Positions 18,342-59,737 of a DNA stretch of 64,000 nt are shown here, piece by piece; the stretch's first letter is position 1; every line of letters starts with the position of its first letter. The notes beneath the pieces were generated by a model, which searched no databases, had not been told where the DNA came from, and worked only from the letters and a program-made list of their open reading frames with translations. Origin of the DNA: Legionellales bacterium (lineage in GTDB: Bacteria > Pseudomonadota > Gammaproteobacteria > JAGOUN01); NCBI GenBank assembly GCA_027486005.1, contig JAIXPZ010000042.1:2894-66893 (forward strand), written 5' to 3'. Made by a program: the position numbers and the translations under genes.

Positions 18342-18451
18342 TTTCGTCCTCACTATCCTTTTCTCGGTTTTGCGATGAAGCACTTAAGTATTTGATTTAT
18401 AATAACTTTTAACATTTTAACTCTAATAATCAGGTTTGCGATGAAGCACTT

Positions 18452-19861
18452 TTATGCCCAAAATGGCAAATATTTGATATATCGTGTAGAGCTTGATTCA
18501 ACATCATCGAGTTTAATTAATCCTGCTTCCTTAGTCGCCTTAATAATAGCAGAAACAATAGTCGCCGCCGATTCTGGTAATTTGAACCGCTCCCGCAAGG
18601 TTTGATTCGACATTTTCTGGTGGTTAACATACAGCAAGCAGCAATGCTGATAACAAGCTCTTATCCTGTCTTTTTTGCTCATATCTGCAAAATCTTGATG
18701 CGCAAAAAGTATAGCGGTTGTGCGTATCTCTCCCACTCTAAAATCAGGCGCAGGCAATTGATAATCTTCAACTGCTTTTACAACCTTATCAACACCACTG
18801 CCCTTTTCTTCACAAATACCAAATCGGCGCATAATATCTGCTAATTTCTCATTACGAGATTGGTATTCATCAATAAAGCGTTCGACCTTAATCGAAGGCA
18901 GGCCAGGATTAGAAATTTCTAAACGATTAGAATACATTTCTATCATGACGGACATGCCTGTCATCGTAAAATCTTGATGCACCAGCGCATTAGCAATTAA
19001 TTCACGTAAAGCTTGTTTTGGAAACATTTTAATTTCTTCACGTACTCCTTGCTCAATAAAATGATTTTGCGGCGCAGCTGAATGAATAAAGTCAACGATG
19101 CTATCAAAATCAACCGCATAACCTTTTGTTTCTTGTTTATCATCCTGCGTAGAAAGTTTATCGATACCTTTATAAATAACAATACGAGGTGCTTTACGGG
19201 CTAAAGATGAAGAAAACGCATCTAAACGCTTCGCCAGTAAAATCGCTGCTAAATTTAAAATTATCCAACTACCATCTTCTTGCTTAATGAGGCCTTCTTT
19301 GGCAAAACGATCTAAAACCGCATCACGCGTGGTTGGATAAGGTAACTTCATCAAATCAAAATATATTTGTGTATCTAATAAAGAAATAACATCATCCGAG
19401 CTGGCATCTGTTTTAGCAGCTTGCTCTAACCAACTAGGTTCTCCTTCAGAAAAAATTCGGCGCAACTGATCTTGTGTCATGGGCACTAATTCTTCCCCGG
19501 AACGCATTAAATACTTTCCATCAAGTTGATATGCTTGTCCTATTAATCGAGAAGGAATTTCAAAAATCAATACACGCTCATCAGAATGGTGTAACTCAGT
19601 CACATCAACACGAAAATGTAATTTTGATAAAATATAAGATTTTATATCACCAATATTGAGAAACGCTTGGGTGCCAACAACTTTACGAGGAGGTTTATCA
19701 CTAACACCGAACACCAGATAGCCACCGCGTTCATTAGCAATAGCCACACAATATTCTAATAATTTCGTTTTATCATACTGTTGTTTAGCTTCTTTGAATT
19801 CAAGATTCTCATTTTCTTTTGGAATAATTAGCCAGCGATTTAGCATATCTAGGGTGGTCAT
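18452..19861 (-). CDS. AlbA_2 (Schlafen-like 'divergent AAA') + HATPase_c_4 putative DNA-binding ATPase, of the kind commonly embedded in Type I R-M loci
   Basis: N-terminal region NLEFKEAKQQYDKTKLLEYCVAIANERGGYLVFGVSDK matches the AlbA_2 core. A C-terminal HATPase-like region is present. It sits between hsdS and hsdR. Confidence 0.65.
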   Translation of the reverse strand: MTTLDMLNRWLIIPKENENLEFKEAKQQYDKTKLLEYCVAIANERGGYLVFGVSDKPPRKVVGTQAFLNIGDIKSYILSKLHFRVDVTELHHSDERVLIFEIPSRLIGQAYQLDGKYLMRSGEELVPMTQDQLRRIFSEGEPSWLEQAAKTDASSDDVISLLDTQIYFDLMKLPYPTTRDAVLDRFAKEGLIKQEDGSWIILNLAAILLAKRLDAFSSSLARKAPRIVIYKGIDKLSTQDDKQETKGYAVDFDSIVDFIHSAAPQNHFIEQGVREEIKMFPKQALRELIANALVHQDFTMTGMSVMIEMYSNRLEISNPGLPSIKVERFIDEYQSRNEKLADIMRRFGICEEKGSGVDKVVKAVEDYQLPAPDFRVGEIRTTAILFAHQDFADMSKKDRIRACYQHCCLLYVNHQKMSNQTLRERFKLPESAATIVSAIIKATKEAGLIKLDDVESSSTRYIKYLPFWA

Positions 19862-19891
19862 ATAGAGGCCTTATTCTATAAAAAATTATTT

Positions 19892-20710
19892 TCAGACATG
19901 AGGTTTTTTCGCTTCTTCAGTTTCTATTTTATGATAAACATCAATATATTTTTTGATAACTTCAGCCCCTGTAAAAAATTGAGTGAATTCGCCGTAGTTT
20001 TTGTCAATTGGTTTGAAATACTCTTTAGTTATGCAATCAGTTATTAACACTCCGTTTTCATTAACATCATATGAAACTCGCGCGGCTCGATCTATAAAGC
20101 AAGCTAAAATATACAGGCTTTTTGGTGATATTTTATTTGTCTTGGCTATGTCATATAAAATTTTGTCATCATGCTTCACAGGTGCGCCATGATAATCATT
20201 ATACTCTATGCCAAAGAAAAACTGATAAAAGTCAATTTTTGAAACTATATCAATCAAGCTATAAGCTGTATTAATATAATCGGTTAGATAGATTTCTATG
20301 TGTGCTTTTTCTGTTACTTTTTCGCACAAACCTTCAGTAGCCTTTAATGCATCAATCACTTTATGCCATATTATATTATTTTTCGCAACGGGCACAGATC
20401 TAGACTTGCGATCAATATTGAGTTCAGCAAAACCTTGAAAGTATTTCTGTATTTGTTCAAGATAGAACTTCGACGATTTTTCTTTAGAATCTTTACGGTA
20501 GTTACATATCGCATAAAGCAAGACTGCGGCAGTAAAAGCTGATCCTGAAGCTGTAAAATAATCTTTTTCAGATGGGCCTAATATTAAAAATATAACGCCC
20601 AGACTGAAAAAAATCAAAGTTAAAATAACGATAAAAATAGTTGCTATCAAGCTTAAATATTTTTTTATAATATACCACCATTTTTGGCGTGCAATATCTT
20701 TAGTGCTCAT
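19892..20710 (-). CDS. Hypothetical 2-TM membrane protein, partner of the Abi_C-like gene
   Basis: N-terminal hydrophobic helices (YLSLIATIFIVILTLIFFSLGVIFLILG and FTAAVLLYAICNY) followed by a soluble domain with no recognised motif. Its start overlaps the upstream gene's stop at 20710. Confidence 0.5.
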   Translation of the reverse strand: MSTKDIARQKWWYIIKKYLSLIATIFIVILTLIFFSLGVIFLILGPSEKDYFTASGSAFTAAVLLYAICNYRKDSKEKSSKFYLEQIQKYFQGFAELNIDRKSRSVPVAKNNIIWHKVIDALKATEGLCEKVTEKAHIEIYLTDYINTAYSLIDIVSKIDFYQFFFGIEYNDYHGAPVKHDDKILYDIAKTNKISPKSLYILACFIDRAARVSYDVNENGVLITDCITKEYFKPIDKNYGEFTQFFTGAEVIKKYIDVYHKIETEEAKKPHV

Positions 20711-21579
20711 TATGATATCTCTGTAGTTGTGTTCAGTTTTTCAACGTGTGTTTCAAATAAAAAAGTGACTAACGTTGCGGCGGCTCCAGCCGCAAGCTTT
20801 GCATGTCGGGATTGTAATGCTTGTGTTTTTGCTGGTTTACCATGCCCTGTCCCATATAGCCCTCGAAGTTGAGAAAGGTCATTTCCTATAGTGCCAAGGC
20901 TTCGCAAAATTGCTTTTATTAAATCAGAGCCTCGTTTATTATCTTCAACTCCTTCGGGAACTAGTGATAATTCTTTCAATAGCATTTTTGTTAATGTTGG
21001 TATATCGAGAGCGCCTGTTATCGGGATACCTCTCTCTTCAAGAATTGTTTTGCATGTTGTTTCGATTAATTCTTTAGCAGTACCAATAACCAAGGACGGA
21101 TCTGTTTCTACTGATTCTTTCATGCGTAGAATCTGCAGTTGAATGTGTGCCCCATCAAGCTTGTCAGGAAAACACATTAAATCATTAAATGTTGAGGGAG
21201 ATATCGGTTCGATTAATTTATTATTAATCCACTCTATACCGTCTCTTTTAAGTTGTGTCATTAGTTCTCCCGCAATATTACAATTATTTTCATAAGTAAT
21301 ATTGCAGTAGAAACCTAGAGGTTGAGCTGTAAGATCAAGAATTACATTTTCATAAACTTTTAATATTTTACGCACGCTAATCCGATTGGACCAGTTAACT
21401 GTATGGTAATATTGTTCCACCAGTATTCGCCGTTCACCACTAATACCTTCTGGCTGGTAACTGCTATCACAAAGGACTTCATATGCTTTAAACGCATCGT
21501 GAATTACGCGAAGAGTGCTATTGACAAAATATTCTCTAAATTTAATACGCGTTCTAATGCTGACAATTGATGACGTCAT
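20710..21579 (-). CDS. Abi_C-like (abortive infection C-terminus, HEPN-superfamily) protein
   Basis: C-terminal region NDLSQLRGLYGTGHGKPAKTQALQSRHAKLAAGAAATLVTFLF has the R-x6-H (RGLYGTGH) signature of the HEPN/Abi_C family. Its start overlaps the hsdS stop (21576-21579), indicating co-transcription with the R-M genes. Confidence 0.5.
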   Translation of the reverse strand: MTSSIVSIRTRIKFREYFVNSTLRVIHDAFKAYEVLCDSSYQPEGISGERRILVEQYYHTVNWSNRISVRKILKVYENVILDLTAQPLGFYCNITYENNCNIAGELMTQLKRDGIEWINNKLIEPISPSTFNDLMCFPDKLDGAHIQLQILRMKESVETDPSLVIGTAKELIETTCKTILEERGIPITGALDIPTLTKMLLKELSLVPEGVEDNKRGSDLIKAILRSLGTIGNDLSQLRGLYGTGHGKPAKTQALQSRHAKLAAGAAATLVTFLFETHVEKLNTTTEIS

Positions 21580-22901
21580 GCTGTGACCTCATATTCGCAT
21601 GACTTCAATTGCCCGGAAATTAAGCGTGGCAGCAATATATCACGTAGTGTTGAAAGAGTTTTAATTTGTTTTAAGTTGGCAGAAAATCTATTTCGCAGAG
21701 GCAAGGTCGATAAATCAAATGCATGCAGTACATCGTGGCTTGGAATAATAAGTTTGAGCTTTGCAAGCATTGAGCGGCTTAATTCTGTTTGGCCAGTGGA
21801 ACCTTCACCCAGTTGTTCAATTTCCGCTTGTCGATTTGAAAGCGCTAACCCAAGATAATTCCATGTTAATAATCCTCCCACACGGACTACAGTAACATGT
21901 GAATCAGCAATTATTGGTTCATCAATTGAGAGAATTTGTGCAACACGTCCAAGAGTGCCAACACCTGTGGAATTTACCAGTACATCTCCAACTAATAATT
22001 CTCGACCTTCAATTTTTCTTTGTGCAGGATCATGGGTGCGCGCTTTTGTTAAGTCAACAATATTATCCCGTATACACTTTTGATTGATGACAGTAATCCC
22101 CGCATTTACTGTATATTTGGGTGAGATGCCTCGGCTAAGATATGTGACTGTTTCTCCAAGTGAAGAAACTTTCCATCCTAATGGTATTAATCCCAGCTCT
22201 GACTCTTCAAAACTATCAGGAAAAAGTGCCGCTGTCTCTGCATCCATTCTTTCAGGTTCACGACCTTCAGCTTTTGCACGTACTGGATCGAAATCAATAA
22301 ACCAGGATTTGAAAAGGGTTTGAGCAATGGATTCGATGGTAATATTGCTTTTGCGTAGTAATTCGATACGATCATCAAGCGATCCTAAAATCTCTAAAAT
22401 TTCTTTTTGCTTTTTTAACGGCGGAACCGCAACTTGCATTTTGTCTACACGAGTAATGTAAATATGTTTGATCGTTGAGCCATCAGAATCATTTTCCATA
22501 ACTTGCTGGTAATAATGAGAAGATAAAAGATATTTCAAGAAGTACGGATTAATTAATTTATTTGGCCTCAATAAAGCAACGGATTGATTAATGCATAAGT
22601 TTTCTTTATCGACAACCGCTACTCTACCAATGGAGCCGTCTTTAGTGAGAAGCACATCACCAATTTTCGGTTTACTTTTATTGGACAGTTTATTAGTAAA
22701 TGCATCTAAAGTTGTCCGTCGTGCCGTTACATAATTTATGCGTCCGTCTACTATATCTTTTGCTGTTAATTTCCACGGGCCATCTTTAGCATCAGGCATG
22801 GGATTTGTAAATCCGTAAGTAATCAAATCTAAAAAGTGTCTTAAATCTTCAATATACCAATCGTTAGGAACAAGCCCAATTTCTGCTTGTTTAAAATTCA
22901 T
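21576..22901 (-). CDS. hsdS: Type I restriction-modification specificity subunit HsdS
   Basis: Two target-recognition-domain halves separated and followed by the conserved HsdS repeats (LRKSNITIESIAQTLFKSWFIDFDP and LRDILLPRLISGQL). Position between hsdM and hsdR. Confidence 0.9.
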   Translation of the reverse strand: MNFKQAEIGLVPNDWYIEDLRHFLDLITYGFTNPMPDAKDGPWKLTAKDIVDGRINYVTARRTTLDAFTNKLSNKSKPKIGDVLLTKDGSIGRVAVVDKENLCINQSVALLRPNKLINPYFLKYLLSSHYYQQVMENDSDGSTIKHIYITRVDKMQVAVPPLKKQKEILEILGSLDDRIELLRKSNITIESIAQTLFKSWFIDFDPVRAKAEGREPERMDAETAALFPDSFEESELGLIPLGWKVSSLGETVTYLSRGISPKYTVNAGITVINQKCIRDNIVDLTKARTHDPAQRKIEGRELLVGDVLVNSTGVGTLGRVAQILSIDEPIIADSHVTVVRVGGLLTWNYLGLALSNRQAEIEQLGEGSTGQTELSRSMLAKLKLIIPSHDVLHAFDLSTLPLRNRFSANLKQIKTLSTLRDILLPRLISGQLKSCEYEVTA

Positions 22902-23061
22902 AGCTAGGTCCTTTTGACTTTTTTGAATTAAATTTCTCCAGTAATGATTTTGTGACGCTCTGAACTACTTCATTAAGCTCACAATTACATTCATCTTCCT
23001 TTATTAATTGTGCTATAGCTTGTGCCTCAATTGAGAAATTATCTTTGTAAGCTCTCATCAT

Positions 23062-24618
23062 TTACACCTCAAACCCAAGTTTCGCTAAATTTTTACGAAT
23101 GAAATCATCCAAGTCAGCACCTTTCGTCATTTGATCTCCAAGCTTTGCAGTAAGTTTTTGCATTTTATCTACAAAAGCTTCTACATTATCTTCAACAGCT
23201 TCCGTGCCGACATAGCGGCCTGGGGTTAGTGCATGACCATGTTCTGTAATTTCAGCAAGTGATACGCTTCGACAAAATCCTGCAATATCAGCATATGTTT
23301 CTTTTGCTTCACCATCGCCACGCCACGCTTGTACAATATCAGAAATTTTTTGAATATCTGCGTCGGTGAATTCCATTTGCGAGCGGCTGATCATCGTGCC
23401 GAGCTTGCGTGCATCGAGGAAGAGCACTTCACCTTTGCGGAGAGTTTTATTTTTTGAGAGAAACCATAAACAAGCCGGAATTTGCGTATTAAAAAATAGT
23501 TGTCCAGGTAAAGCGATCATACATTCTACAACATCGGCTTCTACCATTTTTTTACGTATATCGCCTTCGCTATTTTGATTAGAGCTCATCGATCCATTGG
23601 CGAGAACAATGCCCGCGCGGCCGTTGGGTTTGAGATGGTACAACATGTGTTGCAGCCAGGCATAGTTGGCATTGCCTTGAGGTGGTGTTCCATAGACCCA
23701 GCGTGGGTCGTTGTCTAAACTTCCATGCCACCAATCAGAAATATTGAACGGTGGATTAGCTAAAATAAAATCTGCACGTAAATCTGGATGTTGGTTCTTG
23801 GTGAAAGTATCGCCAGGCTCTTTACCGAGGTTGAAATCGATACCGCGAATCGCAAGGTTCATTGCCGCTAAACGCCATGTCGTCGGATTAGATTCTTGTC
23901 CATAAATTGAAACGTCACCTAATTTTCCACCGTGTGCTTCAATAAATTTTTCAGATTGCACAAACATACCACCTGATCCACAACACGGGTCATACACTTT
24001 TCCATGATGCGGCGCGAGAACGGCCACAAGTGTTCGCACAATGCTAGCGGGTGTATAAAACTGTCCGCCCTTCTTGCCTTCAGAGCTAGCAAATTGGCCA
24101 AGAAAATATTCGTAAACCTGCCCTAATAAATCTTTTGCATTTTGACCAGCGGCACCAAATCCAATAGAAGAAATTAAATCGACCAACTCACCTAACTTGC
24201 CATCCGGTAATTGCGCACGCGCATAACGCTTATCAAGAATGCCTTTGAGCTTTGGATTATCTGTTTCGATCAGCGACAGTGCATTATCAATTAGTTTGCC
24301 AATATCAGGTTGCTTTGCTTGCGCTCGTAAACTTTCCCATCGAGCTGCTTCTGGAACCCAGAACGCATTCACTTCTCTATAATAATCACGGTCCTCTAAT
24401 TCTTTCGCAAGAGATTCTGCATCTGTATCATGCAGATAATATTCATCTTCTTTATTGGTAAAACGGCAAGTGAGTTCATCACGACGCATTTGAAAAGTAT
24501 CAGAAATATACTTCAAGAAAATTAAACCCAACACAATGTGTTTGTATTCTGCAGCATCCATGTTGGCGCGCAGTTTGTCAGCGGTTGCCCATAGGGTTTT
24601 CTTTATATCGTCTAACAT
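23062..24618 (-). CDS. hsdM: Type I R-M N6-adenine DNA methyltransferase HsdM
   Basis: N6-MTase motif IV NPPF (ILANPPFNISDW), an AdoMet-binding region (VYDPCCGSGGMF) and the HsdM N-terminal domain. Confidence 0.95.
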   Translation of the reverse strand: MLDDIKKTLWATADKLRANMDAAEYKHIVLGLIFLKYISDTFQMRRDELTCRFTNKEDEYYLHDTDAESLAKELEDRDYYREVNAFWVPEAARWESLRAQAKQPDIGKLIDNALSLIETDNPKLKGILDKRYARAQLPDGKLGELVDLISSIGFGAAGQNAKDLLGQVYEYFLGQFASSEGKKGGQFYTPASIVRTLVAVLAPHHGKVYDPCCGSGGMFVQSEKFIEAHGGKLGDVSIYGQESNPTTWRLAAMNLAIRGIDFNLGKEPGDTFTKNQHPDLRADFILANPPFNISDWWHGSLDNDPRWVYGTPPQGNANYAWLQHMLYHLKPNGRAGIVLANGSMSSNQNSEGDIRKKMVEADVVECMIALPGQLFFNTQIPACLWFLSKNKTLRKGEVLFLDARKLGTMISRSQMEFTDADIQKISDIVQAWRGDGEAKETYADIAGFCRSVSLAEITEHGHALTPGRYVGTEAVEDNVEAFVDKMQKLTAKLGDQMTKGADLDDFIRKNLAKLGFEV

Positions 24619-25100: not shown

Positions 25101-26951
25101 ATAAAAGGCTATGGGTGAGTAGACCAGGGGAATCTCACCCCTAGCCCCTCTTAGAACCGTACGTGACAGTCTCCCGTCATACGGCTCCCATTACTCAACC
25201 GGCGACGCTAGTCCATAGCGCCAATGCACAAAGAGTTGAGGATAGTGTTTGAATACTCTCCCCAAGTACCGTCTAGCTCTCTTTTTGCTTGCCTGTCCTG
25301 TATTGCTTGCATATTTGCGTTGCGCCCATCTTTGCAGATGTTTCTCTATCTGCACAAACGCCTCTGTCACTTCACTTCGATAAAATCTTCCATAATAATT
25401 CACCCATCCACTGACTCGCGGATTGGTTAATTTCGCCAGTTCCTTGAGTGACATACAGGTCTTTCGATGCAGACGCCAGCTGCGAATGGTTTGGCGAATG
25501 GCTGTCTTCGCTGCATTGCTTATAGCGGGAACAAAGCCGACAAAACCTTTGCCTTCTTTACTCATGACTAATCTTCTTCTGAAGGTGTAGCCTAAGAAAT
25601 CAAAGCTTCTGGGTATGTCTTCTTTTTCTTCTTTAGCTACGCCACAGTAAACAACTTTCGTTTTCTGCGGATGCAATTGCAGCTTGCACTGCGCCATTCG
25701 AGCCTCAATTTCTGCTTTGAGCTGTAATGCCTCATTTTGTGATGTGCAATGGACAATAATATCATCAGCATAACGCTCAAACTGAACGTTAGGGTGTTGT
25801 TTTCTTATCCATTTATCAAACACGTAGTGCAGAAAAATATTCGCTAACAATGGACTTACAACCCCGCCTTGAGGCGTGCCTGTTGTTCTGGGTTGCAATG
25901 ATCCATCGGCCAATTGAGCTGGAGCTCGTAGCCAATGTTTCACGTGCAACATTATCCATCGATCGATACTGTGCTTTTCTAGCGCCAATATGAGCAATTC
26001 ATGATCAATATTGTCAAAGAAACCCTTAATATCAAGATCGATCACCCAGTCACGCTTCCAGCAGCGCTGCCGACATTGTCCCACCGCATCGAGCGCTGAC
26101 TTGTTTGGTCGATAGCCATACGAGTCTTGATCAAAACGGGGTTCGAAGTGAGGCTCAAGGTGCATCGTGACCACCATTTGAGCAATACGGTCGGCGACCG
26201 TGGGTATTCCCAAATAGCGTTGTCCGCCGTCTTTCTTCGGTATCGCTACCGTTTTCACGGGCGGTGGAAAGTAACTGCCTGAGGACATTCGATTCCACAG
26301 TTTATACAGATTGTCTTTGAGTTTTACCTCAAAGTCTGCAATCGACTGGTTATCGACACCCGCCGCGCCTTGGTTACGCTTTACACGCAAATACGCTTGC
26401 CATACATCCTGTTTAGGAATAGCAAACGGTTTTGTTTTACTCAAAAGTTCCTCCCACCATTGGTTGACCTCTAACTAAAACGGAGTAACTCAACCCCTTC
26501 GCTCCATAGCCATTACAGCCACTTCAACACTACTACGGGTTGATCCGCCCCTGTGCTCTGCGTTGGTATTTTCTCTTGGCTTTTATACCTCGAAAGTTCC
26601 CTTATCATCAGAACGACAGGTTCCCGCAGTTCCATACTTAAGCCTAAAATAGGATCATGCTACCTCTACACCGGACACCGCCTATCCAATCATCAGGCCC
26701 CCGATAGACTTTATTCCTAGAGCCATAGAACTCACCCTAGTTTCGATGTCGTCCGATCCATTTCGACGTGTCAACGGTAGTTCACTTGCGTTCATCTTCC
26801 TATTTCGCACATGACTGTTAAAACAGCCTTTTCCTTATCGCTCACTACCAGGGCTCTTTACCCTAGCAGCATAAGGTTGTTTAAAGCCTACTCCTGAAAG
26901 TCGGCTTTGGTGGGCCTACCACCATCTTAAGTGCAGCTTGCTGCGGCACAC
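25101..26951 (-). mobile_element. Group II intron, about 1.85 kb, encoding an En-less RT/maturase; boundaries are approximate
   Basis: The minus-strand 5' end reads GTGTGCCGCAG (reverse complement of 26941-26951), matching the GUGYG consensus. Domain V reads GAGCCGTATGACGGGAGACTGTCACGTACGGTTC (reverse complement of 25154-25187). Domain VI reads GGCTAGGGGTGAG...CTCACCCATAGCC with a bulged A (about 25107-25150). The RT ORF sits in domain IV. Confidence 0.85.
25191..26444 (-). CDS. Group II intron-encoded reverse transcriptase/maturase, no endonuclease domain
   Basis: RT blocks are present (AIPKKDGGQRYLGIPTVADRIAQ and YADDIIVHC, the YADD active site). A maturase X-domain tail is present and there is no H-N-H motif. 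Confidence 0.9.
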   Translation of the reverse strand: MSKTKPFAIPKQDVWQAYLRVKRNQGAAGVDNQSIADFEVKLKDNLYKLWNRMSSGSYFPPPVKTVAIPKKDGGQRYLGIPTVADRIAQMVVTMHLEPHFEPRFDQDSYGYRPNKSALDAVGQCRQRCWKRDWVIDLDIKGFFDNIDHELLILALEKHSIDRWIMLHVKHWLRAPAQLADGSLQPRTTGTPQGGVVSPLLANIFLHYVFDKWIRKQHPNVQFERYADDIIVHCTSQNEALQLKAEIEARMAQCKLQLHPQKTKVVYCGVAKEEKEDIPRSFDFLGYTFRRRLVMSKEGKGFVGFVPAISNAAKTAIRQTIRSWRLHRKTCMSLKELAKLTNPRVSGWVNYYGRFYRSEVTEAFVQIEKHLQRWAQRKYASNTGQASKKRARRYLGRVFKHYPQLFVHWRYGLASPVE

Positions 26952-33662: not shown

Positions 33663-34069
33663 TTTGGCCTAGTTAATCTTAGTTCCATCACTTGTAATTA
33701 TATTGCATATATATTAAAAAGTACAGGTAAAATGAAAATAAACCCCATAAAAGTAAATTTTATGTACAATAAATCATTATTAATCAATGTTTTAGCAAAA
33801 ACTAGTAATTTATTTACATTTATCATTGACGAATATTGTACAAACATGTATTATTATTGCATGTTTTGGCTTTTCTTGTTTGAATGAAATTTTACTTTGT
33901 AAAGGAAGTTCAATATGAGGGGATGTCTAAAAAAAATCTGAGCCAAAGTTGTAGCTTTAGCTCAGAGAATAGTAACACAGACCATTGATGATCTATGAGA
34001 TCTAAGCATTCTCATTCTATCACTTCATTGTGATATCACCAAATGAATCTGTAGAAGCAGAGGTATAAG

Positions 34070-34483
34070 GTGATGTCATATCCATCAAAAAACTTACAAA
34101 TTCTATTGGTTGAAGACGATTTAGTCACTCGATTGTATATGCGTCTGCTATTGCAAGAGCTGAATTGCAAAGTATTGTTTACAAAAAATGGCGAAGAAGC
34201 CGTGGAAAAGTTTAACAATCAAGTTGACGGCATTCTCATGAATATCAGCTTACCTGGTATAGATGGGTGTGAAGCCGCAAGAGTTATCAATCAACAAAAT
34301 CCAAATAATAGAGCAATAATTTATGCGCTTTCCTCAGCTGCGCCTAATACCGATACATATTTTCTTAAGGCAGGAATTCAAGGCTTTGTCCAAAAGCCCT
34401 GTCTAAAAAGCGATTTAAAAAAGTTTTTATTACTGGTAAGTCAAAAAAAGCATAGTAGCCGTGGAAAGAGCATGTCTGTGTGA
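34070..34483 (+). CDS. Stand-alone response-regulator receiver domain, atypical: Asn in place of the phospho-acceptor Asp
   Basis: CheY-like fold signature (LLVEDD acidic pocket, LPGIDG, conserved K in the FVQKP region). When DGILMNISLPGIDG is aligned to the consensus LLDIMLPGMDG, N falls at the phospho-Asp position. Confidence 0.6.
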   Translation: MMSYPSKNLQILLVEDDLVTRLYMRLLLQELNCKVLFTKNGEEAVEKFNNQVDGILMNISLPGIDGCEAARVINQQNPNNRAIIYALSSAAPNTDTYFLKAGIQGFVQKPCLKSDLKKFLLLVSQKKHSSRGKSMSV

Positions 34484-50318: not shown

Positions 50319-52346
50319 ATGTCACGTTATGCGTTTGAAAATTTATTCCGAGAACCGATAGAACTTTATGGCGGTGTGCTGTTATTGATCATCGGATTGT
50401 TCCTATATTTGTTCCCATATCTGTTCCTATTATTAGGCGTTACAAAGTGGGTGGCTTTGGCGCTGGTATTGGGATTAGCATTGAAACATATTACTAGCGG
50501 CCTGCGTGTTTTTCGCTTCAAACGCAGGCTTTTACAAATGAATGCTTTTTCAATGAGCACACAAGCGCTACCTGCTAATCGCCATCAACTTTATTTAGGA
50601 GAAGGGTTCCAGTGGCAGCCCATACACCGTCAGCGATTACACCTATTAAATCAACTGGATAACCAAGGGTATTTGCAACCTTCAAAGCTTTATCAGTGGA
50701 TCGATACAGCAGCACGTCGTCATCCTGAAGGTCGATTAAATCAGTGGCGTACATTACCGCTTTCACCGTTTAAACCTATGCCTGATATTGGAGGAAAACC
50801 GTCGTTGCACGGTGTTGGAAGTGATACTGAACAACCTGTGTATCTACATCAGCATAATCGCAATAGTCACATGGTTGTGTTTGGGATGACGCGTGTCGGC
50901 AAAACACGATTGATGTGCAATATCGTTGCGCAAGATATCCGTAACGGTGAGGCTGTTTTAATCATTGATCCTAAAAGCGATCTTGAGTTGCTGCAGGATA
51001 TTGTGGCTGCTTGTAAGGTGGCTGGACGTGATAAAGATTTAATGATTTTACACGCTGGGATGCCAGAGTTTTCTGCCAAATATAATCCATTGAATAATTT
51101 TGTGAACATCAGTGAAATTGCGACCCGTGTGACAGGCGCTATTTCGGCCGAAGGAGAAGGCCAACAGTTTAAAGATTTTGCGTGGAAGTTTTTAAATATC
51201 GTATCTACCTGTTTAATGGAGATGGGTGAGCCAATTAGCTACGCCACGCTTGCCTTTTATGTGACACGCCCAAAACAGCTTCTTTATCAGTACGGCGAAA
51301 AAATGTTTCCGATGAAAGACCCTCGCTATCAAGAAAAAATTGAACAAATACTGGCAGAAAATAGTAATAAGATTGATAAGAAAGGTAATAAAAAAGGTGA
51401 TATGACGCAACAAGAAGCGGTACAAGTGTATGTCGAAAATTATATTCAAGAAACGCTCGAAAGAGGAGACCGTAGTATTTATGACGCTATCATTGTCGAT
51501 CTGCATTATGCCGCGAATCTAGGCGAAGAATACTATTCTAAAATTACCGCAAGCTTAGGTCCTGTTTTTGATAAAATTAATAAGACATCTGCGCGCGATG
51601 TATTTTCTTGGGAAGGTGAAAGCACACTTCCTGTTATTCGACTTGAAGAAGTCATTCGCGATAAAAAAGTCGTATACATGGGGCTCGATGCACTTTCTAA
51701 CGAAGCGATGGCCAAAGCTATTAGTCAAGCCTTAATTGCCGATTTAGTAACACTTATCGGTAAGCTCTATAAAACTGCACCTGATAAAAAATTTCCATTA
51801 TGCTTACACGTTGACGAATTTAGTAACATGGTCAGAGATGAGTTTATTAATCTTTTAAATAAAGCCGGTGGTGCAGGGATTAAAGTTGCGGCTTATACAC
51901 AAACCGTCAATGATTTGGGTGCGGTTTTTGGAACCAATAAAGATAAGCCTAAAATGCTTCTGGGTAACTTTGGTACGATGATTATGCTGCGTGTTGCTAA
52001 TGACGACACTGCAGAAGTTTTTGTGAATTGCTTAGAGCGAACTCAAACACGTAGTGCCGTACCTTACACCACGACATCCGATAAACCAGACGCACAGGAT
52101 GGCGATTTTTTCACGACGCAAAATACCGATTCAGTGAGTGAAGAATATCAATCGATCATTGAGGTCAATCATTTATTTTCATTGCCTAAGGGACAAGCGT
52201 TTGTGCTGACTGACGGCGGGAAACTTTACAAGATTCGAATTCCGCTTCCTGAAGCTCAAAAAGGGCTGCCGAATAACTTTGAAGAAATTCTAAAAAAAAT
52301 TAATACGAAGTCAGGCTTAAATCAGTATGAAGAGGTGAAATTATGA
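50319..52346 (+). CDS. traD: Type IV coupling protein TraD (conjugative coupling factor, SXT/TOL-like)
   Basis: Two N-terminal TM helices. Walker A GMTRVGKT. Walker B/DE region (CLHVDEFSNM). 675 aa. Confidence 0.85.
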   Translation: MSRYAFENLFREPIELYGGVLLLIIGLFLYLFPYLFLLLGVTKWVALALVLGLALKHITSGLRVFRFKRRLLQMNAFSMSTQALPANRHQLYLGEGFQWQPIHRQRLHLLNQLDNQGYLQPSKLYQWIDTAARRHPEGRLNQWRTLPLSPFKPMPDIGGKPSLHGVGSDTEQPVYLHQHNRNSHMVVFGMTRVGKTRLMCNIVAQDIRNGEAVLIIDPKSDLELLQDIVAACKVAGRDKDLMILHAGMPEFSAKYNPLNNFVNISEIATRVTGAISAEGEGQQFKDFAWKFLNIVSTCLMEMGEPISYATLAFYVTRPKQLLYQYGEKMFPMKDPRYQEKIEQILAENSNKIDKKGNKKGDMTQQEAVQVYVENYIQETLERGDRSIYDAIIVDLHYAANLGEEYYSKITASLGPVFDKINKTSARDVFSWEGESTLPVIRLEEVIRDKKVVYMGLDALSNEAMAKAISQALIADLVTLIGKLYKTAPDKKFPLCLHVDEFSNMVRDEFINLLNKAGGAGIKVAAYTQTVNDLGAVFGTNKDKPKMLLGNFGTMIMLRVANDDTAEVFVNCLERTQTRSAVPYTTTSDKPDAQDGDFFTTQNTDSVSEEYQSIIEVNHLFSLPKGQAFVLTDGGKLYKIRIPLPEAQKGLPNNFEEILKKINTKSGLNQYEEVKL

Positions 52347-52989: not shown

Positions 52990-55122
52990 ATGAGTATATG
53001 TGTATTGTGTGAAAAACCCAGTCAAGCAAGAGATATTGCGAATGTGTTGGGAGCAAGACAACGTCAAGAAGGTTTTATTGAAGGTAATGGTTATCTGGTC
53101 ACGTGGTGTTTGGGGCATCTTTTAGAACTCGCACCGCCCGAGCATTATCAACCCAACTTACAACCTTGGCGATTAGAAGTGTTACCTGTAATTCCTCAAG
53201 CGTGGGCCGTGCTTCCGAATAAAAAAACGAGTCAACAATTAACAGTCATTAAAAAATTATTGAAGCAAGTCAATCATGTCATTATAGCAACGGATGCGGA
53301 TAGAGAGGGGGATGTGATAGGGCGAGAAGTATTAGATTTTTGTCATTATCAAGGAAAGATTGAACGCTTATGGTTATCGGCGTTAGATGATCAGTCCATT
53401 AAGCAAGCGCTTAAGGATATTAAGCCGAACAGTTTTAGTATTAACTTATATCAAGCCGGGCTTGGCAGACAGAGAGCCGATTGGCTGGTCGGAATGACAT
53501 GTACTATGGCAGCAACCGTTCAGTTTTCAAAAGGAAATGGTGTGCTCTCCGTAGGCCGTGTACAAAGTCCAACGCTAAAACTTATTGTGGATCGTGATTT
53601 TGTTATCGAGAATTTTAAATCACAAGATTACTATGATTTGTTGATTACGGTGACGCACCCAATGGGAAACTTCCAAGCGAAATGGCAAGTGCCAGAAACT
53701 TTGGCGGATGAAGAAGGTCATTGTCGCCATCGAAACCATGTTGAAGCGGTGTTACTTACGGTAAAAGATAAACCGGTTCAAGTGATAAACTATTCTGAAC
53801 AAGAAAAAACTCAAAAACCACCGTTAGGACTCTCTTTATCTGTTTTACAAAAGCTATGTTCAAGCAAGTTTGGATTTACAGCGAAAAAAACATTAGAGAT
53901 CGCACAGTCGCTCTATGAAACACATAAAGCAACGACGTATCCAAGAACAGATTGTCAGTATTTACCGTCAAGTCAGTTTTCTGACGTAAGCACAATTTTC
54001 AAGCACTTATCAAATAAAAATAAAGAGTATGTGGATTTAATTGCGAAATGCAATGTGTCGTTCACGAGCCCCATTTGGAATGATAAAAAAATTACTGCCC
54101 ACCACGCTATTATTCCGACGTTAAATGATAGTGTTGTTATCAGCAAGTTAAGTGATGATGAAAAGAAATTATATGACCTCGTATGCCGCACCTACATCGC
54201 ACAGTTTTTAGGCGATTACTATTATCTACAAAAAGAAGTTGAACTTTCGGTAGAAAGCGAGCATTTCAAGGCAGGTTCACATACTTCAAAATCTGTTGGC
54301 TGGAAATTGGCGCTCACGAATGCAGACGATGATGAGCAGCTGGAATCACTTGGCGATATCACTATTCCGACATTAGCAATAGATGAGAGCTTGCTTTGTC
54401 AGGATGCAATAATTCAGGGAAAACAAACAAAACCACTATCACGCTTTACAGAAGGTACACTGATCACCGCAATGAAAAATATTGCAAGCGTCATAGACGA
54501 TGTCGCTTTAAAGAAAATCTTACGTGAGTCAGCGGGCATTGGTACAGAAGCCACGCGCGCCAATATTATCGAAACGCTCATTCATAGAGAATATATAGAG
54601 CGAAAGGGTAAACAGCTTATTTCAACGACAAAAGGGCGTGAGTTGATTCGACTTTTGCCGAGTCACGTGACGAATCCCGCATTAACGGCTAATTGGGAAA
54701 GCAAACTTGATGAAATAGCACAAGGCAAATATGCATTGGAAGATTTTATGACTGCGCAAGTGGATTTGCTGAGAGAAATGTTGCATGAAATTACAGCGCA
54801 ATCATCTTCAGTGACTGCATCTAAAACATCTGAATATCATTGCACAAAGTGTAAGAGTGCTTTATTTCGTAGAAATGGAAAGTTTGGGTACTTTTGGGGA
54901 TGCAGTGGCTATCCTGAGTGTAAAGAAGTGTACAAAGACAATAAGGGTAAACCAATACTTAACAACGAACAGTATGCCTGCCATAATTGCAAAGAAGGGT
55001 TTTTGCAATTACGTTCAAGTAAGAAAGGAAAATTTTGGGGATGCTCAACGTATCCAGCCTGTCAAACAATCGTGAATGATAAACGCGGAAAACCAGAAGC
55101 GTGGAGAAAAAAAGATGCTTAA
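52990..55122 (+). CDS. topB: DNA topoisomerase III (TopB), ICE-associated type IA topoisomerase with C-terminal zinc ribbons
   Basis: TOPRIM start MSICVLCEKPSQARDIANVLGA with an acidic DxDxEG cluster. The catalytic Tyr region and repeated C4 zinc-ribbon motifs (CTKCKS...CSGYPEC; CHNCKEG...CSTYPAC) are present. Confidence 0.9.
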   Translation: MSICVLCEKPSQARDIANVLGARQRQEGFIEGNGYLVTWCLGHLLELAPPEHYQPNLQPWRLEVLPVIPQAWAVLPNKKTSQQLTVIKKLLKQVNHVIIATDADREGDVIGREVLDFCHYQGKIERLWLSALDDQSIKQALKDIKPNSFSINLYQAGLGRQRADWLVGMTCTMAATVQFSKGNGVLSVGRVQSPTLKLIVDRDFVIENFKSQDYYDLLITVTHPMGNFQAKWQVPETLADEEGHCRHRNHVEAVLLTVKDKPVQVINYSEQEKTQKPPLGLSLSVLQKLCSSKFGFTAKKTLEIAQSLYETHKATTYPRTDCQYLPSSQFSDVSTIFKHLSNKNKEYVDLIAKCNVSFTSPIWNDKKITAHHAIIPTLNDSVVISKLSDDEKKLYDLVCRTYIAQFLGDYYYLQKEVELSVESEHFKAGSHTSKSVGWKLALTNADDDEQLESLGDITIPTLAIDESLLCQDAIIQGKQTKPLSRFTEGTLITAMKNIASVIDDVALKKILRESAGIGTEATRANIIETLIHREYIERKGKQLISTTKGRELIRLLPSHVTNPALTANWESKLDEIAQGKYALEDFMTAQVDLLREMLHEITAQSSSVTASKTSEYHCTKCKSALFRRNGKFGYFWGCSGYPECKEVYKDNKGKPILNNEQYACHNCKEGFLQLRSSKKGKFWGCSTYPACQTIVNDKRGKPEAWRKKDA

Positions 55123-55696
55123 ATCACTACTCTTAAAATTTAAAGCTAAATGGACAGAAAAAGAGCGTGAAGAAAAAGATAGAATAGGTCGAGAAATGGT
55201 CACAACTAAAATGATTATAGATCTTTACGCTTACACCTCTAAGCGATTACAGAAGCGTCTAAGTGAAAATTGTATCGTCTCTGAGGGGATTTGCTATTTT
55301 ATGAGGACCTATGCCATGGAGGAATTTATCGAGCAACTTGCTAATCGAGATCTTTCTTATTTAATGCGCTGTTATCCGAGCGATAATTATATCATTGAGC
55401 TTCATGCTGATTTGAACTGCAATGGAAAAATATCCTATCGTGATGCAGTTACGAATCAGCTGTTCTATCGTGATGCCTTTATTTGGCCACAAAGTTTTAT
55501 CTCTCTATCGTCTTTGAAGTTTAAGTTGAAAAAATTACCGCTTCTTTACGCGAGTGAGCGAGTAAGTTTTGGAATGAAAAAAGACGAAGATATTAGCAAT
55601 CTTTATGGTCTATTTATTTGTTCAGAAATGCAAGAAAACCCATTTAATTTGCATTCCGAGAAAGCAATGGCTTGCTATTTAGAAAAAAATGGATAG
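55115..55696 (+). CDS. Hypothetical protein
   Basis: The track ORF starts at 55076, overlapping the topB 3' end. The internal ATG at 55115 (MLKSLLLKF) is more likely. No motif recognised. Confidence 0.35.
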   Translation: MLKSLLLKFKAKWTEKEREEKDRIGREMVTTKMIIDLYAYTSKRLQKRLSENCIVSEGICYFMRTYAMEEFIEQLANRDLSYLMRCYPSDNYIIELHADLNCNGKISYRDAVTNQLFYRDAFIWPQSFISLSSLKFKLKKLPLLYASERVSFGMKKDEDISNLYGLFICSEMQENPFNLHSEKAMACYLEKNG

Positions 55697-56213
55697 AATT
55701 ATTAATAATAAAGCACTGTGTTGTGCTGAATTAATTTACCTACTGCTGATAACTCATCCCTTTAATCGTCAGCGGAGCGTTTAGCTAGGGACATCAGGAT
55801 ATAAATGCAAAGCTTATTTGCCAATCGTCCTGACAGATCGTCGATCTGAACACCCATAGAATACCTATTTGATTGAATTTATTCAATTTCGTAGATGCTA
55901 TGGTCGTTCTTTAACAATGTGATATCACAAATTAAGTTTCTGTTTTGAATGAAGTGACTTTTAAATAAGAAGTATTAAAAAAATGATACTTTTGAAAATG
56001 CGTTTTTGAACATAATGACTTGCCAAGAATCAACTTAATGCACAAGGAGAATATACCTTGAATATTATGTTTTTTCTTAATCGAGACAACACCGATATTA
56101 TTCATAATGTTAGTGTTTTACCTACCGCTGCTGCGGAAGAATAACTCTTCCTGCAGTCGCGGAAGTGTTTTCTTCAGTAGCTTTTCTTAAACAAACTACT
56201 GAAGGAGACAATT

Positions 56214-56462
56214 ATGTCTAATTGCGCTAGAGACGATATGTTTTTAATTGGTTCTGTCGAAAAAGAGCCGAGTTCTATAACAGAAACATATCGTGAATTA
56301 TTTGAGAGCGTATCGTTTGAAATGCAGTCAAATGCAGAAATTATTGATTATCATCTTGCGCATTTCGGTGCTGTTGAAGGTGGTTTCATTAATAATTTCA
56401 GAAACAGAATGATGTCTATCGTCAATGCCATTGATAATAGTCGTCATTTATTGTCGATATAA
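56214..56462 (+). CDS. Small hypothetical protein preceded by a structured leader
   Basis: 82-aa ORF. SD AAGGAG is partly buried in the hairpin CTTCAGTAG-N15-CTACTGAAG. Confidence 0.45.
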   Translation: MSNCARDDMFLIGSVEKEPSSITETYRELFESVSFEMQSNAEIIDYHLAHFGAVEGGFINNFRNRMMSIVNAIDNSRHLLSI

Positions 56463-56546
56463 TATTGTGTATAAAACCCCCCGCTGGGAGAGATAATCTC
56501 CTTGCGGAGCAATTATATTCTCAGCTAATAATGTGAGGATATAATT

Positions 56547-56909
56547 ATGAGCAACGGAACTTTTAGATCATGGATGGAAACGCAATACTCACCCGAGACG
56601 ATGAATGATATTTATCATCATGGGTGTGGCGGTGGTGTTTCAGGATTAATTTATTATTCAGAAACAACTGCGTTGTATGCTGCTTATCAAGAAGAAATTT
56701 GGGAGATTTTACAAGAAAGTGCAGAAGAGTTTGGATATGACAATGTGATTGAGTTACTTGCAAGTCACTCAAAAGCAGATTTAAGTACTCCGGCTACTTT
56801 TGCGAATCATCTTGTTTGGTTTGCTGCTGAAACTATTGCTAGTCAATGGATACAGCAGCATGAACAAGACGAGGATGAAAACGAAAAAGTTTTTTCTTTT
56901 AAGCATTAG
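56547..56909 (+). CDS. Small acidic hypothetical protein preceded by a conserved leader element
   Basis: 120 aa with an acidic tail QHEQDEDENEKVF. The conserved double-hairpin leader lies at 56478-56546. Confidence 0.45.
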   Translation: MSNGTFRSWMETQYSPETMNDIYHHGCGGGVSGLIYYSETTALYAAYQEEIWEILQESAEEFGYDNVIELLASHSKADLSTPATFANHLVWFAAETIASQWIQQHEQDEDENEKVFSFKH

Positions 56910-57030
56910 ATGCGAGCCTACTTATAGTATTTACTATGTGTAGGCACATTTAAACAATTTTTAAACCCTGCTGGGACATGTTTCCCAGCAGGGGAATTAT
57001 GTCCTCAGCAATAATCGTGAGGACGTAATA

Positions 57031-57453
57031 ATGAAAGATACAATGTTGCCACCCGAGAAAATAACAGGAGGGCAGTTACGATACGCATTGAGAGGATTTA
57101 CTTGCACAGCAAACTGGTACAGTCATCCGCTGACTAAGCGGTTAGTGTATACAGATGGAGTGCGGCATTTAGCTCAAATATGTAAATCGTATTGGTTAAT
57201 TGATTTAATTGCTCTGCAATTTTTACCAGAGTTGATAAAAACATCAAATGACTGGTTTTATAGCGTGAGAATTAACGTGACTGACCATCAAACAGGTGTA
57301 GTGATTGTGACGGATGGAAATAGTAAGAAGCCTATCTTAACAGAAGTGCTGCCGTATACGACTTTTCCTAAAGTGAAAAATTTTATGCTTTTTATTGAAA
57401 GTATGGATCATGAAAACAACACATACTGTTTGCTGTTACCTTCTGAGCATTAG
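57031..57453 (+). CDS. Small hypothetical protein, paralogue A
   Basis: 140 aa, clearly paralogous to 57575..58000 (shared NWY-H....YTDGVRHL core). Conserved double-hairpin leader at 56967-57030. Confidence 0.5.
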   Translation: MKDTMLPPEKITGGQLRYALRGFTCTANWYSHPLTKRLVYTDGVRHLAQICKSYWLIDLIALQFLPELIKTSNDWFYSVRINVTDHQTGVVIVTDGNSKKPILTEVLPYTTFPKVKNFMLFIESMDHENNTYCLLLPSEH

Positions 57454-57574
57454 AATATTTTTTGCGCTTAGCCGAATCTAAGCGCAAAAATTTAAATGCA
57501 AAACATTTTTTACCCAGCAGGGGAGTAATCTCCTGCTGGGAGATTATGTCCTCAGCAATAACTATGAGGTCATA

Positions 57575-58000
57575 ATGATGAAAGATGCTGTGTTAGAACT
57601 AGAAAAAATAAAAGAAGAGGAGTTTCGACAAGAACTTGGACAGTTTACAGGAACGGTTAATTGGTATCGTCACAGGCAAAATGCTCAATTTATTTATACT
57701 GATGGTGTTCGCCATTTGATTGAATGTTACCGAGCCATTAGGTTTATTGACATGATTGCATTAGAAGTACTGCCAACCGTCAAAAAAATAAATGATGATT
57801 GGTGTTACTGCTTGATGCTGGCAACTACTGCACAGGAAACAGGTGAATTGACTGTTTTCAATGATGATGATGCAAAATTACTGCTGACAATAAAATTGTC
57901 CTACAGCACCATTCCTCAAATTAGTGAGTTAAGATTTGTCTTAAGTTGTGTTGATGAAAAAGCTGAAGTGTTTTGTTTATCTCTGTCTTCTGAAAATTGA
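57575..58000 (+). CDS. Small hypothetical protein, paralogue B
   Basis: 141 aa, paralogous to 57031..57453. Conserved double-hairpin leader at 57510-57577. Confidence 0.5.
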   Translation: MMKDAVLELEKIKEEEFRQELGQFTGTVNWYRHRQNAQFIYTDGVRHLIECYRAIRFIDMIALEVLPTVKKINDDWCYCLMLATTAQETGELTVFNDDDAKLLLTIKLSYSTIPQISELRFVLSCVDEKAEVFCLSLSSEN

Positions 58001-58165
58001 ATGATTGCCTGTATTTAGCTTTGGCTGGATGCAGGCAATGCTTATCTAAACTGTATATTTTTATTTGCTCGACTTGCAAAACTTGACGCGAGTGCCATTA
58101 TCGAATCAAAATAGCGAAGCCTGGATTTTCTGGGCAATTATTATTAATTTTGAGGATGATTACCC

Positions 58166-58459
58166 ATGGCTAAACCAGTAAATGTTGATAAATTCAAAGC
58201 AACGATTGCAGCACAAAAAGAACAGATCGCTACACTAAAAGCGTCTGTACGTGAACTAAAGGCTGAATTAAAAGCAAAACCTAAGGCCGCAAAAGCAAGC
58301 AGCAAACCTGCTAAACCAGTCGCTAAGAAAAAAGTAGCTGCAAAAAAGGCGGCAAAGCCTGTTGTTAAAAAAACAGCTGCGCCAAAGAAGGTGGCTAAAA
58401 AGCCTGCCAAGAAAACTGCGGCTAAAAAAGCCAAAGTAGTTGCACCACAAGCTGCATAA
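58166..58459 (+). CDS. Lysine/alanine-rich histone H1-like DNA-binding protein
   Basis: N-terminal coiled-coil segment, then AKPKAAKASSKPAKPVAKKKVAAKKAAKPVVKKTAAPKKVAKKPAKKTAAKKAKVV, which are KPAAKKA-type H1-like repeats. The antisense ORFs at 58144..58434 and 58268..58450 are artefacts of the repeat. Confidence 0.65.
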   Translation: MAKPVNVDKFKATIAAQKEQIATLKASVRELKAELKAKPKAAKASSKPAKPVAKKKVAAKKAAKPVVKKTAAPKKVAKKPAKKTAAKKAKVVAPQAA

Positions 58460-58470
58460 GTGTGTGAATT

Positions 58471-58504
58471 CTATTAGTGCGCCACTTTTGGTGGCGCACT
58501 AATA
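58471..58504 (+). terminator. Strong perfect hairpin (15-bp stem, UUUU loop) after the H1-like gene; putative terminator, but no U-tract
   Basis: CTATTAGTGCGCCAC-TTTT-GTGGCGCACTAATAG read directly. It lies 12 nt after the stop codon. Confidence 0.45.
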
Positions 58505-58658
58505 GAATATGCTAAATAGGGGTTGTGTGGAGTTCTGCTTTTGTCCATCAAGAGTAATTATGCAAAAAAGAAGCAGTAATGCGGATTGCTGGAGAAATGG
58601 GAATATTTAACGTATCATTGGCTTAATTCCGATATGGCGTGATTTTTCATAAAAAATA

Positions 58659-59449: not shown

Positions 59450-59737
59450 TTAATCGTCAGACTTACTGTTAACCGCTTCTTTCAACTGAGTCGCTGGCTT
59501 GAAGTTGACCACTACTGAGCGTGGGATAATCATTTCTTTTCCCGTTGATGGATTGCGGCCTTTTCTTTCTTCTCTTATTTTAGTCGCAAAGTTACCGAAT
59601 TTTGGCACAGCAATCTTATCTTGTTTAGCAAGATTCTCTGTGATTGTTTCAAATATCGCCATAAAAATGGTATCTACATCTACTTTAGTAGCGCCTGTTT
59701 TTTCTGCAATAACGGCAAGGAGTTCGGCTTTAGTCAT
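59450..59737 (-). CDS. HU/IHF-family nucleoid-associated DNA-binding protein
   Basis: MTKAELLAVIAEKTGATKVDVDTIFMAIFETITENLAKQDKIAVPKFGNFATKIREERKGRNPSTGKEMIIPRSVVVNFKPATQLKEAV is the canonical HU fold signature, including the arm RNPSTGKEMIIP. Confidence 0.9.
   Translation of the reverse strand: MTKAELLAVIAEKTGATKVDVDTIFMAIFETITENLAKQDKIAVPKFGNFATKIREERKGRNPSTGKEMIIPRSVVVNFKPATQLKEAVNSKSDD

Follow-up and report, generated by a model that had tools for sequence, protein, structure and literature searches.

In the gonococcal genetic island (GGI), two-stem-loop 5′ untranslated regions located upstream of traH and parA occlude both the Shine–Dalgarno (SD) sequence and the start codon (Ramsey et al. 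2015; Callaghan et al. 2021, PMC8716806). Deletion of the inner legs of the parA structure increases expression by 10- to 400-fold, and weakening of its stem-loop SL1 abolishes expression because SL2 then extends; no alternative fold releases the SD, and SL1 is a structural helper (PMC8716806). Here we describe a repeated two-hairpin element for which these RNA switches are the closest documented system. The element precedes consecutive small genes in a 64,000-nucleotide stretch of DNA from a Legionellales bacterium (contig JAIXPZ010000042.1; hereafter the window, within which positions are numbered), and we propose, with a probability of about 0.6, that it is a cis-acting 5′ mRNA leader that serves as a modular translational lock before each gene of an ssb-linked array in an integrative conjugative element (ICE) with an MPF-G-type transfer system.

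Fold-back inhibition, in which an upstream segment pairs with the ribosome-binding site and the mRNA is poorly translated, is known from the IS10 and IS50 transposase mRNAs and from the rpoS leader. The IS10 gene has its own promoter that starts downstream of the inhibitory arm, and the rpoS hairpin is opened by small RNAs (sRNAs). Control of a different type is exemplified by the CUP elements of IncN plasmids, reportedly described by Delver and Belogurov in 1997. In plasmid p576, operators for the repressor Reg576 are located before establishment genes (PMC6294495), and Frpo, a long imperfect DNA hairpin with −35, −10, and UP elements on the transferred strand, is repeated in plasmid leading regions (PMC11541004). 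Timing or limiting of the expression of genes around ssb is known for only a few conjugative plasmids, through Frpo single-strand promoters and through repressor/operator circuits.

Between positions 56125 and 58000, the + strand of the window carries four genes arranged head to tail (56214–56462, 56547–56909, 57031–57453, and 57575–58000). Homologous leaders of ~75 nt each are present before the genes that begin at 56547 (leader A), 57031 (leader B), and 57575 (leader C), and they follow one plan. A GC-rich hairpin (H1) is separated by a linker of 2 to 3 nt from a second hairpin (H2) of 12 to 13 bp, which pairs the GAGG SD sequence and reaches the AUG. In all three leaders, the GAGG resides in the 3′ arm of H2, 5 to 8 nt before the ATG. 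The leaders and the genes that follow them are listed here, with opening energies as defined below.

56479–56509, + strand: H1 of leader A, with a U·U mismatch and G·U pairs; −17.3 kcal/mol.
56511–56546, + strand: H2 of leader A, 13 bp, with GAGG in its 3′ arm and ending at the ATG; opening energy 12.1 kcal/mol.
56547–56909, + strand: DUF7222 gene encoding an acidic protein of 120 aa (Pfam PF23864, E = 2.7e-20; PHROG 2543, of unknown function).
56966–56993, + strand: H1 of leader B, a perfect 11-bp stem, CCCTGCTGGGA/TCCCAGCAGGG; −22.2 kcal/mol.
56996–57029, + strand: H2 of leader B, 12 bp, sequestering the SD; opening energy 13.3 kcal/mol, third of 51.
57031–57453, + strand: DUF6876 gene, paralogue B, 140 aa (Pfam PF21781).
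57513–57540, + strand: H1 of leader C, the leader B stem with its arms swapped; −23.3 kcal/mol.
57543–57576, + strand: H2 of leader C, sequestering the SD, with a stem that takes in the first two bases of the ATG at 57575.
57575–58000, + strand: DUF6876 gene, paralogue C, 141 aa, 37% identical to paralogue B (Pfam PF21781).

These hairpins had been noticed in an earlier sequence-only reading of this DNA, and both their places and the location of the SD in the 3′ arm of H2 were borne out by the coordinates, by folding against shuffled sequences, and by a covariance model. The same reading held that the H1 arms are swapped between copies with the pairing preserved. This is indeed so, and the swapped arms (CCCTGCTGGGA/TCCCAGCAGGG versus CCCAGCAGGGG/CTCCTGCTGGG) amount to compensated changes at H1 positions 4, 7, and 11. 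The H2 stem of leader C holds a single U·U mismatch, which is restored to U-A in the orthologue from a related contig (L115).

Compared with dinucleotide shuffles, the folding z-scores are −3.7 for leader A, −7.9 for leader B, −6.4 for leader C, and −4.2 for the leader of the gene at 56214, which is described further below. Predicted energies range from −17 to −23 kcal/mol for H1 and from −9 to −15 kcal/mol for H2. The energies needed to expose positions −16 to +3 are 16.4, 13.3, 12.1, and 8.5 kcal/mol for the four genes. Among the 51 genes of the window, for which the median is ~6 kcal/mol, these SD-opening energies rank second, third, fifth, and twelfth. A riboswitch-like anti-sequestor, wherein an alternative pairing between H1 and H2 would free the SD, was considered and rejected. 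The two hairpins fold independently, and in each of five leaders H2 still forms when the H1 5′ arm is blocked; therefore, no such anti-sequestor operates in these predictions. We likewise rejected a small upstream open reading frame (ORF) within H2 that might permit translational coupling (ATGTCC...TAA in leaders B and C), since its ATG is absent from class A and from the class C copy of related contig L006.

Pairing was evaluated with a MAFFT alignment of 16 leaders that was made without reference to structure. Standard pairs occupy 93% of the alignment cells, versus 48 to 56% when the 3′ partners are slid by 1 to 3 columns, and the observed covariation score was reached by none of 500 shuffles. 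Pairing has thus been kept by compensatory changes. With 14 distinct H1 sequences set in a fixed register, at least two canonical pair types occur at 6 of the 11 positions: U-A, A-U, and C-G are found both at position 4 and at position 7, and A-U and G-C at position 11. Position 5 varies within class D, a fourth leader class found in relatives before a 64-aa ORF (orf64; L006 2925–3007, L034 889–973, and L112 840–923), being A-U in L006, G·U in L112, and G-C in L034. Position 7 of H2 alternates between A-U and G-C, with one G·U intermediate. One-sided changes in the arm that pairs with the SD (the anti-SD arm) are almost all C-to-U, with the pairing kept as U·G.

The wobble pattern also bears on which strand is folded. 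Both helices together contain 34 G·U cells versus 4 A·C cells, and by our own count of independent events the ratio is roughly 18 to 4. For all 17 leaders, the sense strand gives the more stable fold, with a margin over the antisense strand of 3.4 to 11.3 kcal/mol, and the same asymmetry is seen under DNA energy parameters. Because G·U outnumbers A·C and the sense strand always folds better, we conclude that the selected structure is on the sense strand, where it is most simply mRNA. Furthermore, leaders whose downstream gene has been deleted hold uncompensated mismatches (L111 1367–1449 and L035 560–631), and this links the constraint to the downstream gene. Identity between leaders B and C is 71%, compared with 55% (DNA) and 37% (protein) between their genes, and leaders A and B are 69% identical despite preceding unrelated genes.

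A covariance model built from the 16 leader variants scores 97, 86, and 72 bits at the three homologous leader sites. Its only other plausible sense-strand match in the 64 kb is at 56118–56216 (17.7 bits), which is the leader of the gene at 56214; the remaining matches above 17.7 bits are antisense readings of the palindromic H1 stems of leaders B and C. An Rfam 15 scan of the window at the gathering threshold returned group II intron families only and no family for the leader, and a permissive scan of 55600–58600 (E ≤ 10) gave only chance microRNA and small nucleolar RNA matches that lie outside the leaders. The motif, which the sequence-only reading had not recognized, is previously uncatalogued.

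Relatives of the array genes were gathered from public assemblies, and the leader proved to be confined to about a dozen closely related ICE contigs (L001–L006, L034, L035, L111–L113, L115, and L116). Two leader-bearing contigs belong to the gammaproteobacterial metagenome-assembled genome (MAG) GCA_018061255.1. The leader is absent from distant DUF6876 loci (2 genome, 6 viral, and 73 metagenome), and therefore the motif is specific to the ICE clade and not to the protein family. All 19 matches of the leader pattern in viral contigs are chance matches without hairpins, and a DNA similarity search against plasmids returned no match.

Several relatives carry rearranged versions of the array. In L115 (9433–10236), which is the second ICE copy of MAG GCA_018061255.1, the DUF7222 gene and the first DUF6876 gene are fused into a 267-aa ORF and the class B leader is missing. 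In L005, a deletion has joined the SD of H2 straight to an ATG within the second DUF6876 gene, leaving a truncated product of 58 aa. In L112 (1548–4032), an IS66-family element (TnpB_IS66 and DDE_Tnp_IS66) directly follows the DUF7222 gene, in place of the DUF6876 genes.

The sequence-only reading counted four related elements and treated 56214–56462 as an ordinary small gene. The count holds for three homologous leaders (before 56547, 57031, and 57575). The leader at 56214 shares their architecture but not their sequence and hence is analogous, and the gene itself proved to be a deletion fusion. Its features are as follows.

56125–56162, + strand: H1′ of the ssb-type leader, an interrupted GC-rich hairpin, CCGCTGCTGCGGAAG...CTTCCTGCAGTCGCGG, indicated by the sequence, the fold of the L034 orthologue, and the weak covariance-model match.
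56163–56213, + strand: H2′ of the ssb-type leader, ~15 bp, with a GAAGGAG SD in its 3′ arm; −19.3 kcal/mol, opening energy 16.4 kcal/mol, second of 51.
56214–56462, + strand: 82-aa ORF composed of the ~20 initial ssb codons followed by the 3′ part of orf64, as revealed by comparison with L034 500–871 (SSB) and 971–1165.

The orthologues in L006 and L112 carry an SSB Pfam annotation. The fourth element is thus the leader of ssb, now in front of the fused ORF, and there is no intact ssb at that position in this ICE copy. The same fusion is present in L001, L005, L111, L115, and L116.

Given a structure on the sense strand, its fixed anchoring to the SD and AUG, and its decay upon gene loss, the simplest reading is a cis-acting mRNA leader that occludes the ribosome-binding site. 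H2 pairs the SD and extends to or into the start codon, and therefore the ribosome-binding site is occluded in any transcript that holds the 5′ arm of H2. Translation would then be intrinsically low and would depend on transient or factor-assisted opening of H2. H1, a very stable GC clamp situated 2 to 3 nt upstream, most likely serves as an insulator that lets H2 fold autonomously and shields the lock from upstream sequence, by analogy with SL1 of parA. The net effect would be a uniform post-transcriptional gating of ssb, orf64, the DUF7222 gene, and the two DUF6876 genes. Candidates for opening the lock include a protein, an sRNA, a physical cue, or transcription that starts inside H2.

Several points weigh against this interpretation. 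That H1 and H2 both reside in the mRNA is a presumption, and the proposed role of H1 derives from analogy. Hairpins of this strength (−9 to −19 kcal/mol) would be expected to shut off translation almost completely, and the analysis revealed no means of unlocking: the five leaders offer no alternative H1/H2 pairing that would release the SD, the window contains no complement of the anti-SD arm beyond the leaders themselves, and it encodes no CsrA, Hfq, ProQ, or CspA homologue. The phylogenetic depth is small, with about a dozen closely related contigs and perhaps ~10 independent compensatory events. Moreover, because single-stranded DNA also tolerates G·T mismatches, a role for the + strand as DNA is conceivable.

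A narrower version of the translational lock, which we regard as unlikely, is that the two-hairpin leader is a portable gate that silences ssb-linked establishment genes in read-through transcripts of the resident ICE. Translation would proceed only from transcripts that start inside H2, or after an entry-specific factor opens H2. If true, such gating would mirror, at the level of RNA, the zygotic induction that Frpo promoters bring about. A conserved NATTAT at the H1–H2 junction resembles a −10 box. A sigma-70 promoter in H1 or at the H1–H2 junction was nonetheless rejected as a candidate, given that there is no conserved −35 box and that the −11 A is replaced by G in two orthologues with pairing kept as G·U.

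It is similarly improbable that the hairpins are primarily RNA processing or stability elements, such that a polycistronic transcript is cleaved in an AU-rich spacer, with a further hairpin (H0) guarding the upstream 3′ end, H1 guarding the downstream 5′ end, and SD burial being secondary. This explanation draws on three hairpins located after stop codons.

56916–56945, + strand: H0 after the DUF7222 stop codon, with a compensated change (CCTAC/GTAGG here versus CCTGC/GCAGG in L001) and no clear U-tract.
57459–57490, + strand: H0 after the paralogue B stop codon, 13 bp, with a T-run on its 5′ side and an A-run on its 3′ side.
58004–58039, + strand: H0-like hairpin after the last leader-bearing gene.

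The regular intergenic order of H0, an AU-rich spacer of 20 to 25 nt, H1, and H2 speaks for processing, as do the preserved pairing of H0 and the independence of H1 folding from H2. However, processing accounts neither for the constant distance at which H2 is tied to the SD and AUG in four leader classes nor for the changes in the anti-SD arm, which are nearly exclusively C-to-U with the pairing kept as G·U. In addition, leader A in the window lacks an H0, and its H1 begins only 17 nt past the upstream stop codon. Processing is compatible with the translational lock, and the two may coexist: once the transcript has been cut in the H0–H1 spacer, H1 may also protect the 5′ side of a cistron.

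Less probable again is that the hairpins function as single-stranded DNA in conjugative transfer, acting as promoters or priming signals on the transferred strand in the manner of Frpo or ssi. The setting is similar to that of Frpo in that repeated structured elements precede ssb and small accessory genes of a conjugative element (PMC11541004), and the hairpins form in DNA folding as well. However, DNA folding of both strands yields only local stems of 11 to 13 bp and no long hairpin with −35 and −10 boxes, and promoter-like sites are not in excess (17 versus 16.6 in shuffled sequence). The template (−) strand would have to fold, whereas the wobble pattern and the energies favor the + strand, and a DNA-level function gives no reason why H2 should keep a fixed relation to the SD and AUG.

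The sequence-only reading left a choice between an RNA control element and a protein-binding palindrome. The former is favored by the compensatory changes, the excess of G·U over A·C, the buried SD and AUG, and the decay upon gene loss. The latter would make H1 a double-stranded DNA operator for a dimeric ICE repressor, in the manner of the p576 operators for Reg576 or of the IncN CUP elements, and we consider this very improbable. A perfect 11-bp inverted repeat does lie before consecutive genes, palindromic half-sites co-vary as well, the T(A/T)TAAA directly 5′ of H1 is a possible −10 box, and establishment genes under repressor control are known (PMC6294495). However, constant half-site spacing is not observed. 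The gap between the 11-nt arms is 4, 6, 9, or 10 nt across classes D, B/C, and A, and the complementarity always runs on to a loop of 3 to 6 nt, which fits a hairpin and not a fixed half-site geometry. The centre of the arm also varies by class (TGCT, AGCA, TAAC, or TGAC), asymmetric H1 positions show G·T 15 times and A·C only twice, and class A orthologues keep their U·G, U·U, and G·U positions.

The H1 3′ flanks (GAGCAATTAT, GAATTATGTC, and AGATTATGTC) lack the U-tract that immediately follows the hairpin of an intrinsic terminator. The least probable explanation, namely that these repeated intergenic palindromes are intrinsic terminators of the upstream genes, which the sequence-only reading had named as the scenario that would overturn its proposal, or are selfish palindromes of the repetitive extragenic palindromic (REP), miniature inverted-repeat transposable element (MITE), or attC type with no regulatory role, gains something from a T/A-rich run after H1 on the minus strand (one such site is flagged as terminator-like), but the sequence next to H1 on the + strand is GAAUUAUG, AGAUUAUG, or GAGCAAUU, neither H1 nor H2 has a U-tract or is flagged as a terminator on that strand, the attC core sites RYYYAAC and GTTRRRY are absent from 56100–58200, no copies occur elsewhere in the 64-kb window or in more than 70 distant DUF6876 loci, and the SD of the element is always 5 to 8 nt before a start codon.

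The proteins encoded by the array offer few clues to function. The two genes taken to be paralogues in the sequence-only reading are both DUF6876 members, and the families that it did not recognize are catalogued in Pfam as domains of unknown function (DUF7222 and DUF6876). Searches of the array proteins against PADLOC returned nothing, the PDB sequence search was empty, and PHROGs gave only the family of unknown function for DUF7222. The predicted DUF7222 model is all-helical, with a predicted local distance difference test (pLDDT) score of 79.9, and a fold search with it gave no significant match. The suggestion that this acidic protein might be a DNA mimic with anti-restriction activity therefore received no support from PADLOC, the PDB sequence search, or the fold search, and there is no evidence against it either. 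On plasmids, DUF6876 genes adjoin ParB-like and mobilisation genes.

The window is an ICE whose transfer system is of the MPF-G type. Its products include TraC_F_IV, TraG_N, and TraU, a coupling protein (50319–52346), DUF2859, DUF4400, RAQPRD, DUF3487, DUF2895, DUF3438, ParA, and integrases, whereas no relaxase gene or origin of transfer was identified in it. The leader array thus sits in an island that encodes a type IV secretion system (T4SS), which is also the location of the gonococcal switches. In fuller relatives, the order after the topoisomerase III gene (52990–55122 in the window) is ssb, orf64, DUF7222, DUF6876, DUF6876, a Lys/Ala-rich 97-aa protein, and, on the opposite strand, HU. 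Upstream of the array is the following region.

55697–56124, + strand: conserved non-coding region with long invariant blocks across 7 related loci.

This region of ~430 bp contains several short inverted repeats (e.g., CAGATCgtcGATCTG, ATTGAATttATTCAAT, and ACATTATtcATAATGT) as well as a 12-bp palindrome, TGTGATATCACA, at 55918–55929. It is probably a promoter/regulatory region for the array, and a candidate origin of transfer (oriT) as an alternative. The palindrome, TGTGATATCAC(A/C), occurs in two near-identical copies. The copy at 55918–55929 is upstream of the ssb leader and invariant in 7 relatives. The other copy, at 34029–34040, is upstream of a receiver-domain gene at 34070, where it doubles as the 5′ arm of a hairpin in which the start-codon region is paired. 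The two copies may represent a shared operator. A 28-codon ORF at 56059–56145 was rejected as a leader peptide because its stop codon and frame are not kept in L034.

Directly after the array is a gene (58166–58459) for the Lys/Ala-rich 97-aa protein, which is histone H1-like with an N-terminal coiled coil. This gene has no two-hairpin leader, and its opening energy of 6.8 kcal/mol is near the window median. A perfect 18-bp inverted repeat (58468–58508) lies 3′ of it. The HU-family gene (59450–59737, − strand), also located after the array, likewise has no two-hairpin leader. Elsewhere in the window, a group II intron (25114–26923, − strand; Rfam RF00029 and RF01999) with a reverse transcriptase/maturase ORF (25191–26444) adjoins a type I restriction-modification system (15252–24618) and other defence-like genes that form part of the ICE cargo.

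Control of the genes in this array is apparently post-transcriptional and modular, with one leader design placed before unrelated genes and better conserved than those genes. Considered alongside the traH and parA switches of the GGI, the array suggests that T4SS islands may repeatedly employ two-stem-loop translational locks as a regulatory device. In practice the scope is narrow, since all copies of the motif that were found belong to a small clade of ICEs from environmental gammaproteobacteria; the leader nevertheless provides a small system, amenable to mutation, in which to look for whatever opens such locks.

Among known systems, RNA thermometers of the ROSE and FourU types resemble the leaders in having a hairpin that pairs the SD. 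However, there is no Rfam match to them at E ≤ 10, and the stems described here are long, nearly perfect, and far more stable than those of typical thermometers. The Reg576 and CUP systems share with this array a conserved element repeated upstream of several establishment-type genes, but those elements are promoter/operator DNA with a fixed motif geometry, whereas the leaders exhibit variable arm spacing and an RNA-type wobble pattern. Frpo and ssi elements are likewise repeated, structured, and located upstream of ssb and small accessory genes, yet the stems of the array are all short and free of promoter boxes, and they favor the sense strand. The IS10/IS50 and rpoS mRNAs are closer, because in these also an upstream segment pairs with the ribosome-binding site. 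They differ in their means of release: for the leaders, the promoter-site scan revealed no internal start site, and no sRNA complement was found in the window.

The gonococcal traH and parA switches are closest of all. The leaders fold into the same kind of SD-occluding two-stem-loop structure, parA and the leaders both lack an alternative fold that releases the SD, and both groups reside in T4SS islands; the likeness is one of architecture and setting and not of sequence comparison. The gonococcal switches have been established by experiment, whereas the leaders are known from sequence and folding. SL1 of parA, at −8.3 kcal/mol, is much weaker than H1, at −17 to −23 kcal/mol, and the leaders described here are reused in tandem. 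The kind of structure represented by the motif is therefore already known, namely a two-stem-loop, SD-occluding leader in a T4SS island. What is distinctive is its modular reuse before four or five consecutive, partly unrelated genes, together with the strength of both hairpins.

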